This document shows positions 20,883-27,971 of a DNA stretch of 64,000 nucleotides, in pieces (positions within the stretch are counted from its first letter, which is position 1; each line of letters begins with the position of its first letter). Origin of the DNA: a virus (taxonomy: Duplodnaviria; Caudoviricetes); the IMG/VR virus record IMGVR_UViG_2799112767_000002, positions 1,844-65,843 of that record. One strand, 5' to 3'. The translations under genes and the position numbers were made by a program. The notes beneath the pieces are model-generated. The model saw only the letters and a list, made by a program, of their open reading frames with translations. It did no database searches and had not been told where the DNA came from.

Positions 20883-21443
20883 ATGGCAAGACAGAAAAAG
20901 ACCATTATCACCGGCGTGTCCCGCGAGGCCGCTGATGAAGCATTCGCAACCTATGCGAAGAGTGACGCACAGATTCAGAAAATCAATGCAGAGATAGAAC
21001 TGCAGTGCGCCAAGATCCGTGAGAAGTACGCCGACAAGTTGGCCACCCTGGGCGCTGAGAAGGACAAAGCCTTTGACGTGCTCCAGAGCTTCGCCACCGA
21101 GAACCAGGCAGAGTTGTTCACCAAGAGGAAGAGCCTCGACATGGCTCACGGCACCATCGGCTTCCGCACCGGCACACCGAAATTGAAGACCCTGAAGGGC
21201 TTTACCTGGGCGAGTGCGCTGACGCTGGTAAAGAAGTTCATGCCTGGCTATGTGCGCACCAGCGAGGAAATCGCCAAGGACAAACTGCTGGCTGACCGCG
21301 AACTGGAGGCTGTTGAGTTCATTGAGAACGACATCACCAAGAAACAGATACCGATGGGTACTGCTATGGCCGAGTGCGGTATCATGGTGACTCAGGACGA
21401 GACCTTCTATGTAGAACCCAAGAAAGAGGAGACCACCGTATGA
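20883..21443 (+). CDS. Gam-like host-nuclease inhibitor (DUF3164)
   Basis: Long helix, then HGTIGFRTGTPKL...EEIAKDKLL...QDETFYVEP. Confidence 0.85.
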   Translation: MARQKKTIITGVSREAADEAFATYAKSDAQIQKINAEIELQCAKIREKYADKLATLGAEKDKAFDVLQSFATENQAELFTKRKSLDMAHGTIGFRTGTPKLKTLKGFTWASALTLVKKFMPGYVRTSEEIAKDKLLADRELEAVEFIENDITKKQIPMGTAMAECGIMVTQDETFYVEPKKEETTV

Positions 21444-21931: not shown

Positions 21932-22454
21932 GGACATACAAGTGGAGATGTCCGACGAGTTCGACCAGAACTTTGAGCGTGAGGCATTCTTTAGCGAGGT
22001 ATGGCAGCGCAGGCGTAGCCCGATGCGTCCAGACGGTCATATCCTCGTCGATACAGGTCAGTTGCGCCGTAGCATCCAGAGCCGGACTACCGAGAACAGC
22101 ATCACGTTCTACACCGACCTGCCCTACGCAGCCATTCACAATGAGGGTGGCGAGATAGTAGTTACCCCAAGGATGAAGAAATACTTCTGGCACAAATACT
22201 ACGAGGCGACCGGCTCCTTTGGGCGCAAGAAAGACGGCAGCCGGAGGAATGACAAGCGCACGGTGCAACTGAGTGACGAAGCCGAGTTCTGGAAGTTTAT
22301 GGCACTAAAGAAAGCCGGTACCACCATCAAGATTCCGCGCCGTCGTTTCCTCGGTACCAGTCCGGAGGTGGAGCAAGCGGTGCGGACTATCATCGAGGAG
22401 AACCTGAGCGGATATATCGAAGAAGCCATCAATTTTGAAATACACGAGAAATGA
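21891..22454 (+). CDS. Virion morphogenesis protein (Mu gpG-like)
   Basis: LVDTGQLRRSI, YAAIHNEGG, IPRRRFLG. Confidence 0.85.
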   Translation: MKSETQAILRRILKDIQVEMSDEFDQNFEREAFFSEVWQRRRSPMRPDGHILVDTGQLRRSIQSRTTENSITFYTDLPYAAIHNEGGEIVVTPRMKKYFWHKYYEATGSFGRKKDGSRRNDKRTVQLSDEAEFWKFMALKKAGTTIKIPRRRFLGTSPEVEQAVRTIIEENLSGYIEEAINFEIHEK

Positions 22455-22954
22455 GAAAAGAAGTATATCAGATGCTCATAGAGCAACTTTCCAAACTATA
22501 TGTGACGCCGGAAGGTGACTACGGAGTAGCACAAACTGAAGACGATGCTCCTGAAGGCTGGGAACGCGCCATCAAGCACATCGACCTGTGGAACCACAAC
22601 GTGGAGTTCATCGAGCAGGAAGAGAACTGGGAGCGTCCGGCGGTGTTCGTGGAGTTCCAGCCCATCCAGTGGAACGCCATACAGTCAGGAGTGGAGTACC
22701 GTGCAGAGCCGATAGTGCACCTTCATGTGGTGACGGACTGGCAGGGCAGCAGTTCTGCAGATAGTGAGTTCCGTGAACAGAGCCTGAAGGTGTTCGACTT
22801 ACTGGAGGCGATACACCAGCAGTTGGCTTGCAGGAGAGGCAAGACGTTTCTGGAGTTTGACCTTGTAGGAAGCAGCACAAACCACAACCACGAGGAGATT
22901 ATTGAGAACATAGAAACCTACCAGTGCGTGGCGATAAAAAGCCTGGAAATGTAA
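22451..22954 (+). CDS. Putative tail completion/terminator protein
   Basis: IKHIDLWN...RPAVFVEF; follows the morphogenesis gene. Confidence 0.55.
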   Translation: MRKEVYQMLIEQLSKLYVTPEGDYGVAQTEDDAPEGWERAIKHIDLWNHNVEFIEQEENWERPAVFVEFQPIQWNAIQSGVEYRAEPIVHLHVVTDWQGSSSADSEFREQSLKVFDLLEAIHQQLACRRGKTFLEFDLVGSSTNHNHEEIIENIETYQCVAIKSLEM

Positions 22955-23027: not shown

Positions 23028-23096
23028 TGCAATAAAGCACTGAGGGAATGGCACTCTGGCAATTTAGACCTAACCGCCGCCTTCGGTGTTTTATTC
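23028..23096 (+). ncRNA. Candidate small hairpin RNA, convergent with the muF 3' end
   Basis: TACCTTTG at 23016-23023. Stem AATAAAGCACTGAGG / CCTTCGGTGTTTTATT has two G-U pairs that favour the plus strand. Confidence 0.4.
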
Positions 23097-24281
23097 GTTT
23101 ATATCATTTATTGAGTAGAGATAGTATTTTATTACTATGTGTCCACTATCCCTATGCTTGACTTCCTTAGCAACATTTAACCGTACGGTTCTTCCATGCA
23201 ATTCTGCCTTATAATAGTAGAAATGTTCTATATTATCAGCTCTCGGATGCGTTAAAGCAGAATCATCAATATAGGTGCTGTTTTCAAGGAGCGCTCCCAA
23301 ATCTTTTAAGTCTTCTTTTAGCAAGACTCTTGATCTGCCGAATGTATCAGAGAAAAGGTGTTTATTCCCATAAGTAGAGAACCCGACTTTGATTGTACCC
23401 TCGTCGATGGGCTTTTCATGCCTGATTTGGAGCAACGGTTCCATTTCGTGGAGATAGTGTGTCCTTTCGATTGCAGTTGCTGACTTTTCATTATCCCCTG
23501 CACATCGATGCAGAAGTTCGCATGCAGCGCACACTTCGTTGTCAGGAACAAAAGCGAGTTTTAGTTTCCCCTTTGCAATGTCGCAGTCCCGGCACCGTTT
23601 GATGGTGTACGGATTGTAGTCCGGAATAGTTTTCTTCTCTATGCCAGGATTGAAGTGGAAGATGCCCTTAGTGTCCTTACCCGTTGCCTCCTCACCGAGT
23701 GCCATTGCCTCGTCGTGTGGTGTCACGGGGTACTTTGACCTGCGCACCTGTACGACGGTGCAGCGGCAGTTCCAGCCGTTTGGTGGGTAATACTCCTGCC
23801 AGAACGGGTCAGACATTGGGAGTGTCACACGATCGAGCGCGGCGTGTTCCGGACGCACCTTTTTGTCTCGCTGAGTGCGGTACTGCAGATTGTATCGGTC
23901 GCCGTCCTGCATGAAGCCCTCCCACTTGGCAGCCATGTCAGCCGAGGCCTGGCAGAAGTTATATTCCGCACGGAGGTAGTTCTGGTTGTAGGTGCGGTCT
24001 ATCCTCTGAACGTCATTCAAAAACTGTTCGAATGGTTTTCTATTGCCGTTCTCGTCGATGAGAGACGGGAACGCCTCGTTGAGTTCGTGGAACGTCTTCA
24101 TGCCTGAGAAGATGTAGTTCGACCGCTGAAGACGCTGGCGCATGGCATCCGACATTTTGACTTGCTGGAAGCCGGAGTTGAGCGCGTCGGCATGTGTCTC
24201 TATGAACTCCTGCATTTTCGGTGTCTCCAGTAACTCTATGCGGAACTGTGACCCCTGTTCCTTGTAGAGTGTCTTCATCAT
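23091..24281 (-). CDS. MuF (SPP1 gp7-like) head protein with an AT-rich C-terminal extension (LPD3/PBECR-like, putative toxin); true start uncertain
   Basis: LQYRTQRDKKVRPEH...YPPNGWNCRC MuF motifs. The frame stays open upstream to the end of the portal gene without an ATG. Confidence 0.85.
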   Translation of the reverse strand: MMKTLYKEQGSQFRIELLETPKMQEFIETHADALNSGFQQVKMSDAMRQRLQRSNYIFSGMKTFHELNEAFPSLIDENGNRKPFEQFLNDVQRIDRTYNQNYLRAEYNFCQASADMAAKWEGFMQDGDRYNLQYRTQRDKKVRPEHAALDRVTLPMSDPFWQEYYPPNGWNCRCTVVQVRRSKYPVTPHDEAMALGEEATGKDTKGIFHFNPGIEKKTIPDYNPYTIKRCRDCDIAKGKLKLAFVPDNEVCAACELLHRCAGDNEKSATAIERTHYLHEMEPLLQIRHEKPIDEGTIKVGFSTYGNKHLFSDTFGRSRVLLKEDLKDLGALLENSTYIDDSALTHPRADNIEHFYYYKAELHGRTVRLNVAKEVKHRDSGHIVIKYYLYSINDINE

Positions 24282-24384
24282 TCCCTCGAACAGGCGCGAG
24301 AGTTCCTGACGTATCTCGTCCTCACGGGCGAAAGTGGCGACGGGAAGACCGCCGTCCGCAAGGATTCGGGCATAGCGTTCGTGC

Positions 24385-24422
24385 AGCCCCAGGTAATCAC
24401 TGGGGCTCAGTCGAAAAAAGGG
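24385..24422 (-). promoter_or_regulatory. Candidate -1 programmed ribosomal frameshift signal (portal to MuF)
   Basis: C CCT TTT TTC slippery run, 5-nt spacer, perfect 8-bp stem AGCCCCAG-tgattac-CTGGGGCT. The -1 frame is the MuF frame. Confidence 0.65.
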
Positions 24423-25741
24423 CGCGCATTTTGTTCCTGTCGCGTCTTTTTGTCCGGCTTGGGCGTTTTATTGCCTTTGGGGTCTTCATCGTCCTGTGGC
24501 GGCTCTGGTGGCGCGACAGGCGGCAACATCTGCCTACGTTCCCCTACAGGCATGTTGTATTTCTCCTCGAAGTAGGCAGGGTCAACCTCATACTCATTGA
24601 GCACCATCGTCTCGTATGCCACCTGCTGCTCCGGCGTATAGTCCACTGAGTAGTCCCAGTCGAAGTGGATTCCTTTGAGCGGGAAGCCGTGACGGATCAT
24701 GTGCGGCAGCAGCTGATTGTTTACCATGTCACGGATGGTGTCGCAGTCCGCCTCGATGAGGTTCTGGAAGACTTCAAGGTGCGTTTCAGACTGTGAGAGG
24801 CTGGATCCGTCCTCGATGGTCATAGTCTGCCCGATGATCAGTTTGGAGAGTTCCGAGTTGGCACGATCGATGCGCTTGTCATAGACATTGAAAGCATCGC
24901 CCCGTGAAGACTCCACGACCTCGATGTTCGTACCCTCCTGGAATATGCCCCATCCCTCGGTACCCATGTCGGCCATCATCTTTTCCATCTTGGCGAGTTC
25001 CTTGTCATCGCGTGTGGTGGTCCGTGCAATGCGCATCGGCATACCGAAGATCTCGGCAAAGGTGTCCCAGAACGCCAGGGCATTTTTCTTCGGGATGGTC
25101 TGTGTTGCGGCTTTGAGGTAAAGCCCCAGACTGTCTGGCTGCCCCACCTCAATGAGCCAGTCGGCAAACGGTGTGTCGTGGTAGTCAATGCCGGTGTGCC
25201 AGTCCTGTCCGAGGTCAGGAACGACACGGTGATATTCCGGAATGACATGCTTACGCGGAATGAGGCGCACCCCGTCATAGGTCTGCCGTCCGTTTATGTC
25301 GGTGGTGATGTTGCCCAGTTCTATGAGCGAGTGCCCCCAGTAGTTAGCGTCGAGGGCGAACTTCATTAGCAGTTTGAACCAGGAGGTGTTGAAGTAGTTT
25401 GCTGCCTCCTCGTCCTCGTCACCCTTCTCGTTGACCAGTTTGAAGGAACGGGCCATGACAAAGCCCTCGCGCTGCTGTATGCAGCCGGAGAGGTGCAAAT
25501 CCACCTCCACATCGCGGTATATGTCGTATAGCCTCTGACGGTTCGGACTATCCACGTTTATTGCCAACTGCCAGGCATTTCTCCAGTCCCCGATATCCTT
25601 TCGGGTGAGCGAGTCGGTGGTGCGCTGTAGTTCCATGACCGTCTTCTTGAAGCGCTGCGCATCCTTCTTAGCCAGGCGCAATGTTCCGAACGGGGTGCGC
25701 ACCAGCAGTTTATTGTCTGTATTTTTGTTTCTCTTTCCCAT
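24407..25741 (-). CDS. Portal protein (DUF935, Mu gp29-like)
   Basis: FAEIFGMPMRIA..., ELSKLIIGQTMT..DGSSLSQSETH. Confidence 0.9.
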   Translation of the reverse strand: MGKRNKNTDNKLLVRTPFGTLRLAKKDAQRFKKTVMELQRTTDSLTRKDIGDWRNAWQLAINVDSPNRQRLYDIYRDVEVDLHLSGCIQQREGFVMARSFKLVNEKGDEDEEAANYFNTSWFKLLMKFALDANYWGHSLIELGNITTDINGRQTYDGVRLIPRKHVIPEYHRVVPDLGQDWHTGIDYHDTPFADWLIEVGQPDSLGLYLKAATQTIPKKNALAFWDTFAEIFGMPMRIARTTTRDDKELAKMEKMMADMGTEGWGIFQEGTNIEVVESSRGDAFNVYDKRIDRANSELSKLIIGQTMTIEDGSSLSQSETHLEVFQNLIEADCDTIRDMVNNQLLPHMIRHGFPLKGIHFDWDYSVDYTPEQQVAYETMVLNEYEVDPAYFEEKYNMPVGERRQMLPPVAPPEPPQDDEDPKGNKTPKPDKKTRQEQNARPFFD

Positions 25742-25746
25742 GATTG

Positions 25747-26166
25747 TTACCAGTTATGACGTAGTTTCTTCTGACAGCCGTACACCATCGGGAAGCCGAC
25801 GGGGTTTCCGTCCTCGTCGGTGGCAAGTGGCAGATCCGGCACGATTTTCCCTGCCTGAACTCCCTCCAGCCACTTGATGGCGCGTTCGTAACGTTCCTTT
25901 CGTATCTCCATGCCCATCTTCTGCGGTGCCGATGCAGCCATGTGATAGAGTGCGATGTCGCAGGTGTACATGACCACGAGCCTGTTCCGCTCCGTGCCAA
26001 CGGCACTGAAGATGGCGCTGGTGTCGTATTTGGGTCTGAGGTAGCCGCTGATTTCCTCGACGGCTTCCGTCTCGGCATTGGCCCGGTTCTCCTGGCTGAC
26101 CTGTGAGACAACCTTCAGAGCCTGGTCGCCGATGACCACCTTGTAGTCTTCATCCGTGATAAACAT
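25747..26166 (-). CDS. DUF1320 head-tail adaptor (Mu gp36-like)
   Basis: CDIALYH...RYERAIKWLEGVQAGK...L. Confidence 0.88.
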   Translation of the reverse strand: MFITDEDYKVVIGDQALKVVSQVSQENRANAETEAVEEISGYLRPKYDTSAIFSAVGTERNRLVVMYTCDIALYHMAASAPQKMGMEIRKERYERAIKWLEGVQAGKIVPDLPLATDEDGNPVGFPMVYGCQKKLRHNW

Positions 26167-26408: not shown

Positions 26409-27971
26409 TTACCATTGGTTTTTGGAGGTCGGACGTTTGCCGAACCTCGGTGAATAAATCTGTTGTCTTGTATTTCTCTGCAGGATCCAGATGGCACCCT
26501 CGTCGGCATCAGGCGCGTCGTCGTTCCCGGACATACCCTTCTCGAATGCCAACAGCTGCTCCAGTCCGGCTTGCATGTCGGGGTCTTCCTTCTGTGCTTG
26601 GTCGTAGAACACGAAGCCACGCTCCCAGAGCGGACTGATGGCCTCGATACGCTGGAACTTGTCCGGTTTTTTGCGCGTGTCGCCCGTGATGGGGAGTTGG
26701 TAGCCACGCAGATTGCCCTCCTCCGTGAAGTCGTCGAGTATCATATCCTGCATAAATGAAGCCTCCATCGCAAAGCGTATGGCAATGCCTACTTCCTGGC
26801 TCCACTCGTAGAGGTCGTAACACCAGCGCACCAGTTCCGCTACCGATGCCTTGCGCACGAAAGCGCGGAGGTGCCAGAGCTCCGTCTTGCGCTTTGCCCA
26901 TAGTTTGGCCGCCTTGGTGTCGTTGGTCTTCTTGCTTTTCCAGGACGGGTCGATATAGAGGACAAATTCGGTAAAGTCCTTCCACGCTGGACGCTTCGCC
27001 CACTTGATCCATTCCTGCCGGAAGACGGTGCCCTCCACGATGGGGTTGTGCATCATCTCCTTGTTCCAGGCACGATAGCCCACGAACTCCATGTACTCAC
27101 GAGCCTCCTCCTTGGTCCATTTCTCTTTCCATACGGGGTTGCCCTCATTGTCAACGGCATATACCGTTGAGACGTGGACGCCCTTTGTGGCGCATATATT
27201 CGCCAGGACGGAAGTCTTGGATATGAGGTTGCCCACCATGAGGAAGCGACCGCGACCCACGTCGAGCGCTCCGAAGAGTGCCTCCTTTACCCAGTCGGTG
27301 AGTTCACGGACACGCCGTTCGTTACGGCATAGTTCGTCGTCGTCGAGGTCGTCGATGACAATGTAGTCAGGACGCGACTCACGCTTACGGAGACCACGTG
27401 GCGACTGCCCACGGCCACAAGCCAGGAAATACACCCCGTCCTTGGTGGTGAACTCACCCTCCGTCCAGTTGCCGAGCGTCATTTGTTTGCCGAAATCAGC
27501 AATGATGCGTTTGTTATACTGGAGCTCCGCCTGAATGTCACCCAGCAGTCGGTCGGCGGAGTCCTCGGACTTTCCGACAATCACCATGAAATTGATGAGC
27601 CGCTTCGGTTGGAACATCAACCAGAGCGGCATGAAGATGTCGAAGTGTGTGGACTTGGCGTGACCGCGTGGCCACTTGAAGACCGCCTTCAGGTTCGGCG
27701 TGTTTTTTACGAGTTTGGCTGCCGCATTGTGAAATGGGGCATTGTGGATGGTGCGTATGGCTTCGCCAGTCACCTTGTCACGGAGTGTAAGGAAATGCGG
27801 AAAGTAATACTCACAGAAAGCGGCATAGTCTTTCTGGAGGCGGCGTATGCGCTGCTCCTTCTGGGTGGCATTCTCACGTACGAGACTTTTCGTGTCGGTC
27901 AGGTTTTGGATCTGCCGGCAATGCTCCCTCCACTCCTCCTGTACTTTCTTAAATTCCGCGATAGTGGACAT
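26409..27971 (-). CDS. Terminase large subunit
   Basis: WPRGHAKST, RGLR...RPDYIVIDDLDDD, YIDPS, DDAPDA. Confidence 0.92.
   Translation of the reverse strand: MSTIAEFKKVQEEWREHCRQIQNLTDTKSLVRENATQKEQRIRRLQKDYAAFCEYYFPHFLTLRDKVTGEAIRTIHNAPFHNAAAKLVKNTPNLKAVFKWPRGHAKSTHFDIFMPLWLMFQPKRLINFMVIVGKSEDSADRLLGDIQAELQYNKRIIADFGKQMTLGNWTEGEFTTKDGVYFLACGRGQSPRGLRKRESRPDYIVIDDLDDDELCRNERRVRELTDWVKEALFGALDVGRGRFLMVGNLISKTSVLANICATKGVHVSTVYAVDNEGNPVWKEKWTKEEAREYMEFVGYRAWNKEMMHNPIVEGTVFRQEWIKWAKRPAWKDFTEFVLYIDPSWKSKKTNDTKAAKLWAKRKTELWHLRAFVRKASVAELVRWCYDLYEWSQEVGIAIRFAMEASFMQDMILDDFTEEGNLRGYQLPITGDTRKKPDKFQRIEAISPLWERGFVFYDQAQKEDPDMQAGLEQLLAFEKGMSGNDDAPDADEGAIWILQRNTRQQIYSPRFGKRPTSKNQW

Follow-up and report, generated by a model that had tools for sequence, protein, structure and literature searches.

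The window analyzed here is a stretch of 64,000 nucleotides (nt) from a tailed-phage record of IMG/VR (IMGVR_UViG_2799112767_000002, positions 1,844 to 65,843; Caudoviricetes). Its minus strand carries the gene for a portal protein of the Mu gp29 type and, in the -1 frame relative to it, the gene for a head protein of the MuF family. From the comparative evidence given below, we consider it very likely that the 3' end of the portal gene holds a programmed -1 ribosomal frameshift signal, and that the locus belongs to a Mu-like (hankyphage-like) prophage of a Prevotellaceae-type host. The features of the junction, with protein lengths in amino acids (aa) and open reading frames abbreviated as ORFs, are the following.

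24407-25741, minus strand: portal gene (Mu gp29 type), frame 0, 444 aa, with the PF06074 Portal_Mu domain at residues 72-396.
24413-24419, minus strand: slippery heptamer T TTT TTC in the X XXY YYZ phase of the portal frame.
24422-24416, minus strand: second heptamer, C CCT TTT, overlapping T TTT TTC.
24408-24412, minus strand: spacer GACTG, 5 nt, holding the first two bases of the portal stop codon.
24385-24407, minus strand: candidate stimulatory hairpin, AGCCCCAG, loop TGATTAC, CTGGGGCT.
24282-24413, minus strand: start-less linker (RLSPSDY...FEG) in the -1 frame, with no ATG, GTG, or TTG.
23091-24281, minus strand: MuF ORF as a gene caller would call it, 396 aa from ATG ATG.
23094-23498, minus strand: variable C-terminal module of MuF, 135 aa, possibly with a RelE/BECR-like fold.
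23091-25741, minus strand: predicted trans-frame product, portal residues 1-443 followed by 440 residues of the -1 frame.

The portal protein matches the Portal_Mu profile with E 4.7e-75 and 253 bits (curated cut-off 23.9). The MuF core domain, at about 23754-24026, matches PF04233 Phage_Mu_F (E 1e-14, 55.6 bits against a curated cut-off of 29.6), and MuF also matches PHROG 220, "minor head protein and DNA pilot" (E 8.7e-27). The last 40 or so residues of the portal form a low-complexity tail that varies among relatives, yet the last 15 nt of the gene are almost invariant. This end reads CGC CCT TTT TTC GAC TGA, so that the protein terminates in PFFD. On T TTT TTC, tRNA-Phe reads both codons before as well as after a -1 slip. 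The hairpin consists of an 8-base-pair (bp) stem with six G-C pairs and a 7-nt loop. Its folding energy is -14.1 kcal/mol when folded alone, and it is present in both the minimum-free-energy and the centroid folds; the final A of the portal stop codon is also the first A of the hairpin. No intrinsic terminator or promoter was found on the coding strand of the junction, and no U tract follows the hairpin. In Rfam, the junction matched no known RNA family, the sole match being a chance microRNA with E 0.23.

The -1 frame, which is the frame of MuF, is open from 24467 to 23091. Its first ATG, GTG, or TTG is the ATG ATG at 24281, 46 codons past the slip site, and the tryptic peptide LSPSDYLGLHER of the linker is not preceded by any start in this frame. 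The computed fusion has 883 aa and 102.4 kDa, with the junction ...ARPFF/RLSPSDY.... Thus, the preliminary description of this DNA, made from the window alone, was accurate as to the heptamer T TTT TTC, the 5-nt spacer, the perfect GC-rich stem, a MuF frame open without ATG upstream of MMKTL, and an extended portal of about 883 aa. It had also named C CCT TTT as a slippery site. That heptamer is present in the window, but its conservation among relatives was rejected, because the codon before TTT varies.

Relatives were retrieved by the portal protein and not by the signal. They comprise 27 loci from genome assemblies of Prevotella, Prevotellaceae, Muribaculaceae, Phocaeicola, and other Bacteroidales (portal identity 59-97%) and 80 loci from IMG/VR (65-100%). 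The arrangement TTTTTTC, 5 nt, and GC-rich stem is found in 103 of 105 junction-bearing loci with a portal identity of 65-100%, representing 66 distinct 60-nt versions, and two more junctions with a portal identity of 48-53% retain the heptamer, the spacing, and the stem. Within group A, T TTT TTC is invariant in all 60 aligned distinct junctions. The preceding codon may be CCT, CAT, CGT, CTT, GAT, GGT, or TCT, and always ends in T, as a heptamer would require and a Phe-Phe dipeptide would not. Every junction of groups A, B, and C has a spacer of 5 nt, and the phages of Porphyromonas gingivalis have one of 6 nt. The portal tail just upstream is highly variable in both sequence and length, and the cassette itself is almost invariant. 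In one locus (L085:4239-4400) the MuF frame is broken soon after the hairpin, which indicates either a decaying copy or an assembly error.

The hairpin is maintained by compensatory changes. In the 60 distinct group A junctions, 99.6% of the stem cells are paired, and the two pairs next to the loop take several forms: pair 31-41 is UA in 23 cases, AU in 22, and GC in 14, and pair 32-40 is CG in 31, GC in 20, AU in 8, and UG in 1. The covariation score of the stem is 0.316, against 0.063 in shuffles; none of 500 shuffles reaches it, and the covariation collapses when the partner is slid by one column. The paired changes alter the MuF-frame protein: Ser AGY occurs with Leu CTG, Ser TCN with Glu GAG, Ala GCC with Ala GCG, Asp GAT with Ser TCG, and Thr ACY with Val GTG. 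Since pairs are kept despite forced changes of residues, selection acts on RNA pairing rather than on the protein. A compensatory CG-to-UA swap in an otherwise invariant core pair is seen in L110, whose portal is 53% identical to that of the window, and a pattern scan yielded an additional stem version with AA/TT. The alignment of related junctions that the preliminary description had proposed as a check therefore gives the conserved slippery run and the compensatory stem changes it had predicted.

A different modification of the hairpin is an 84-nt in-frame insertion in the loop, found in six loci (L022:4233-4345, L026:3261-3373, L049, L052, L087, and L097). Here the same 8-bp stem still closes, two sub-hairpins lie inside it, and the stimulator becomes a three-way junction. 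The insertion corresponds to 28 aa (...SCKANAME...PKP...) and adds an ATG in the MuF frame.

To follow the cassette beyond these loci, we used an 18-mer composed of the heptamer, the spacer, and the first stem bases. It occurs in at least 98 IMG/VR contigs, and in all 67 new distinct junctions the -1 ORF has at least 255 codons or runs off the contig end. Among 401 genomes sampled across the order it was found in two, and its reversed control in none. The 18-mer is specific, and a sparse occurrence is what a single prophage family would lead one to expect.

The second line of evidence comes from the linker. In 54 distinct relatives, the distance from the heptamer to the Met-Met pair ranges from 47 to 78 codons, with no stop and only in-frame insertions and deletions; over the same segment, the other two frames contain 2.8 and 2.1 stops on average. 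The ratio of nonsynonymous to synonymous change (dN/dS) is 0.18 for the block HERYARIL and 0.15 for the block REDEIRQELSRLFEGMM, with synonymous change saturated (pS about 0.7) in both, and the Arg codons of the linker alternate between CGC, AGA, and AGG. Over the heptamer and stem, pS is lowered to 0.29, as is usual where an RNA element overlaps a coding sequence. The linker has no conserved start codon, and its Leu codon next to the site may be CTG, CTA, or TTA. In L004 and the loci of the L007 group, the -1 frame has a stop two codons before TTT TTT and the portal has its stop two codons past the heptamer, so that the frame must change within about six codons centered on the T run. In an AlphaFold model of the extended MuF, residues 1-31 have low confidence, which suggests that this part of the linker is flexible. 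Judging from these patterns, the linker is translated and is reachable only from the portal frame.

The third line of evidence is provided by lineages in which the frames are arranged differently. In hankyphage (Bacteroides phage p00, jmh72_hp; portal identity 30%), the portal-MuF boundary contains CGT TTT TTC, 5 nt, and a 6-bp GCCCCG/CGGGGC hairpin; frame 0 goes 13 codons further, and the -1 frame joins MuF. Ten P. gingivalis phages have a single ORF of 852 aa with Portal_Mu, Phage_Mu_F, and PBECR2 domains. At the domain boundary it holds CGT TTT TTC, six bases, and an 8-bp hairpin, and there it is the -1 frame that ends, after 21 codons. Similarly, the P0237/P0238 lineage (seven contigs), with a MuF core 62% identical to that of the window, keeps the cassette within a frame 0 fusion, and its -1 frame is closed after 14 or 19 codons. 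In the Prevotella type, GCCCC encodes Ser-Pro, and in the other groups Ala-Pro, so that it is the RNA that is conserved. Whichever arrangement is used, plain portal and portal-MuF would both come from a single locus. In contrast to such loci, the junction is free of a T run in outgroups with a separately started MuF (Flavobacterium phage lotta8-2, Winogradskyella phage Peternella, D108/Mu, and Clostridium phage Villandry). L089 (4150-4250) was considered as one more natural in-frame fusion and rejected: it carries one extra A in an A7 run compared with its near-twin L092, and its single frame is probably a homopolymer error.

Taken together, more than 100 junctions, the compensatory stem changes, selection on the linker, the stops in both frames, and the frame-swapped fusions in related lineages strongly support the earlier suggestion that a fraction of portal chains is extended into MuF by a -1 shift. 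The most probable course of events is as follows. In most ribosomes, translation would proceed over TTT TTC GAC and terminate at TGA, which yields the 51-kDa portal. A fraction of them would be held up by the GC-rich 8-bp hairpin located 5 nt past the heptamer, and both tRNA-Phe would then re-pair one base back on T TTT TTC (U UUU UUC). Translation would continue in the -1 frame through the 46-codon linker into MuF, producing the 102-kDa fusion, presumably as a minority product. The portal C-terminus faces the capsid interior, and a MuF attached to it would therefore ride into the procapsid. Through the fusion, MuF molecules and the variable cargo domain at their C-termini may thus be positioned in measured number at the portal vertex of the procapsid interior, the copy number being set by the efficiency of the shift. 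The flexible linker could later be cut by the head protease, freeing MuF, as reported for the portal C-terminus of Mu: the Mu virion structure lacks the last 124 portal residues, which its authors attribute to cleavage by protease I (PMC11915804).

Several points weigh against this interpretation. The trans-frame product is a prediction from sequence. The preliminary description had proposed to look for it by virion mass spectrometry, and the only such data found for a relative are those on hankyphage (PMC12135933, S6 table): MuF peptides are present in the 85-250 kDa slice, but so are small proteins (Gam, adaptor), and the gel-slice data are uninformative about the fusion. An efficiency for the shift on U UUU UUC was not found in PMC4066793. 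The local fold of 101 nt has a z-score of only -1.7 and is no outlier relative to shuffles. As T TTT TTC is likewise not unusual by itself (18 occurrences in the window, 16 expected), what makes the signal significant is its position, phase, and spacing, together with its conservation among relatives. In loci of the hankyphage type, MuF does not depend on the shift, since the portal stop is overlapped by an ATG or GTG. Finally, a run of six or seven T could also support slippage of RNA polymerase, and the conserved ATG ATG at 24281 could also start free MuF. These two last points lead to alternative explanations.

A variant compatible with the frameshift is that both routes operate, the shift making a little portal-MuF and internal initiation at ATG ATG making the bulk of MuF as a free protein. 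We regard this combination as possible, though on balance doubtful. The conservation of the Met-Met pair agrees with it, as do the hankyphage-type loci, which hold a start overlapping the portal stop in addition to the cassette. However, the context of ATG ATG is the most GC-rich among the neighboring genes: in the 20 nt before it the fraction of A is 0.10 and that of A+T is 0.35, compared with 0.55-0.60 A+T at the neighboring genes. Moreover, in the AlphaFold model the Met-Met pair lies in the middle of a helix (31-52) that begins 16 residues upstream. The pair is also retained within the natural in-frame fusions, where no start is needed, and in relatives with an additional domain of about 190 aa before the MuF core, internal initiation would lose this domain.

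Transcriptional slippage offers another way to the same product: RNA polymerase would add one U on the T run, and a minority mRNA would encode portal-MuF. The site is indeed a homopolymer, with six T or, in loci of the L001, L005, L006, and L081 type, seven. Yet six is the rule here, and programmed transcriptional slippage is known from A or T runs of about 8-9 or more. In addition, the run is always in the X XXY YYZ phase, and the covarying hairpin lies at a fixed distance of 5-6 nt downstream, where a stimulator of ribosomal shifting acts; to our knowledge, a downstream hairpin has no established role in polymerase slippage. We consider this explanation improbable, and a ribosomal mechanism remains the best-supported one on the features of the site.

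Still less probable, and in our opinion very unlikely, is the absence of any recoding. MuF would then be made only from a start of its own, whether at ATG ATG (24281) or at some non-canonical codon of the linker, and the T run and hairpin would have another role, for instance in the processing or stability of the mRNA or in translational coupling. In favor of this, nearly all relatives retain ATG ATG, an ATG is present 15 codons past the site in group B loci, and in some relatives gene callers place TTG or GTG starts inside the hairpin. Against it stands the purifying selection on the 46 codons that precede ATG ATG, which are nowhere interrupted. The non-canonical candidates (CTG, CTA, and TTA) are not conserved and, where present, lie within the stable GC-rich stem, and in some loci the -1 frame is closed two codons upstream of the run. 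The mid-helix position of Met-Met, its retention in the in-frame fusions, and its GC-rich context argue against it as well. The last alternative, a single portal-MuF gene split by a homopolymer indel through assembly or sequencing error or in a decaying prophage, fits the one-frame L089 and the broken frame of L085, but can safely be dismissed because of the number of independent loci, as the same frame arrangement is present in more than 100 independent assemblies and isolates, in 66 distinct junction sequences, and in at least 98 IMG/VR contigs matched by the 18-mer.

Returning to the programmed frameshift, the comparison of lineages allows a broader reading, which we offer as a conjecture that falls somewhat short of being probable. 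The cassette may be an old two-way recoding switch common to transposable phages of Bacteroidales, including the Prevotella-type prophages, the globally abundant hankyphage, and the P. gingivalis phages, and may set the ratio of portal to portal-MuF whichever frame carries MuF. The fusion would then load a measured dose of MuF and its interchangeable effector or toxin domain. While the procapsid assembles, it would be anchored on the inside of the portal; the head protease would later release it, as happens in Mu, and it would leave the capsid when the DNA is ejected.

The cargo in question is the C-terminal module of MuF. Among 76 related MuFs, the last 140 aa form at least 13 clusters that are unrelated to one another, and most of ten representative C-termini had no match in Pfam. 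The preliminary description had called this tip toxin-like. The module varies among relatives as in polymorphic MuF toxins, but in the window its toxin-like character is only suggestive. It matches LPD3 with 22.8 bits, under Pfam's cut-off of 27 bits. Modeled alone, it has a predicted local distance difference test (pLDDT) score of 90.4, and its best fold matches are BrnT, YxiD, CdiA-CT, colicin D, and RelE, with Z of only 4.5-5.2. About half of its best 50 structural neighbors are toxins of the RelE/ParE, colicin D, CdiA-CT, BrnT, and YxiD types. A Foldseek search with the model of the whole MuF gave nothing at E <= 0.001. As a conserved unit, the module is present in 670 database proteins; of the best 120, all except one truncated entry have it joined to MuF. 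Other MuFs of the same setting end in recognizable domains: that of hankyphage (L112:3727-5205) in a papain-fold glutamine deamidase toxin domain (PF15644, E 1e-9) and the portal-MuF fusion of a P. gingivalis phage (L114:2174-4729) in a PBECR2 nuclease domain (E 4e-12); the MuF of L016 has a weak, sub-threshold match to CdiA_C. A nuclease-like effector is plausible for the window, and the resemblance of the module to RelE/BECR is no more than suggestive.

Two further kinds of insertion occur in related MuF proteins. Many close homologs (P0121-P0236; 70-76% identical, 780-840 aa) hold an intein (PF14890, PF13403, and PF07591). Others have the extra domain of about 190 aa mentioned above, which lies between the frameshift site and the MuF core and contains an HExxH motif (HELGHYIDY, HELAHMIDY); it was found in L016, L046, L080, L081, L102, and L104 and in proteins P0001-P0003. 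By its motif, this domain may be a metallopeptidase able to process the fusion.

The junction is part of a minus-strand block with the order TerS-TerL-adaptor-portal-MuF. Upstream of the portal, it includes the following genes.

25747-26166, minus strand: gp36-type adaptor.
26409-27971, minus strand: ORF of 520 aa in the position of the large terminase.
Farther along the same block, minus strand: small terminase.

The 520-aa ORF has no Pfam match at E <= 0.001. Two plus-strand genes converge on the block, namely Mu Gam (20883-21443) and a virion morphogenesis gene of the gpG/Neck1 type (PF05069; 21828-22454). In hankyphage, which differs in this respect, Neck1 follows MuF on the same strand. 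The plus-strand ORFs just downstream of MuF in the window (22451-22954) have no Pfam match.

Programmed frameshifting in tailed phages is textbook knowledge for tail chaperones and is known for a few capsid genes. The mechanism proposed here is canonical, and the novelty lies in the gene pair, in the apparent purpose, and in the arrangement running both ways. The preliminary description knew of no precedent, and likewise, in the available parts of the literature, including the papers on hankyphage and P. gingivalis phages and a 2016 recoding review, we found no report of recoding in a portal gene or at a portal-MuF junction. If the frameshift is real, MuF/gp7-type proteins and toxin-like domains would enter the capsid at a copy number written in the mRNA as a frameshift efficiency. 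Current annotations of MuF in these phages would miss about 46 codons or put the start within the hairpin, and the product of about 100 kDa would be absent from protein databases and hence from proteomics searches. The signal is carried by abundant gut and rumen phages, among them hankyphage and the P. gingivalis phages, which makes it easy to test in cultured systems, and the swapped-frame versions provide a natural experiment on the evolution of recoding sites.

Among known systems, one with a similar functional logic is SPP1, in which gp7, a member of the MuF family, reportedly sits non-covalently on the portal gp6, with few copies in the capsid. In both cases MuF would be targeted to the procapsid via the portal; the link in SPP1, however, is a contact between separately translated proteins, and here it is predicted to be a peptide bond made by recoding. 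Temperate phages are also said to encode MuF polymorphic toxins, for which we know of no description of a portal link by recoding. The MuF of the window resembles them in having a core followed by a highly variable C-terminal module, and differs from them in that its C-terminal domain does not belong to a recognized toxin family.

With respect to the mechanism, an obvious parallel is the -1 frameshift of the tail assembly chaperones G/GT, which is reportedly found in lambda and most long-tailed phages. Here too, a heptamer near the end of a structural gene would extend a minority of chains into a start-less next ORF, and the position of the site is conserved across very divergent sequences. 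Unlike G/GT, the genes involved are the head genes for portal and MuF rather than tail chaperones, the stimulator is a conserved covarying hairpin, and the frames are swapped in related lineages. The G/GT class is defined by a pair of chaperones upstream of the tape measure, to which the genes of the window do not correspond, and the resemblance is one of mechanism only.

Another parallel is the tau/gamma recoding of dnaX, which in E. coli uses A AAA AAG and a hairpin and in other bacteria has reversed arrangements (PMC5009743). In both systems a heptamer with a stem-loop would give a long and a short product in a set ratio, and the long product is encoded in frame 0 or in the -1 frame depending on the lineage, as in the P. 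gingivalis type and the Prevotella type, respectively. In contrast to dnaX, which is a cellular replication gene, the portal gene serves phage morphogenesis, its heptamer is U-rich, and, because the upstream sequence is variable, it has no conserved upstream stimulator resembling a Shine-Dalgarno sequence.

Finally, natural in-frame portal-MuF fusions are present in Microbacterium phages of clusters EA3, EA5, EA8, and EB (PMC7302621). These proteins, like those of the P. gingivalis "Alisviridae" phages (BK068090 and others), are covalent portal-MuF chains of the kind predicted here. Both groups show that such a protein is viable, and the Microbacterium examples show that it can assemble. The window differs from both groups in that the fusion would require a change of frame, with portal alone as the default product.

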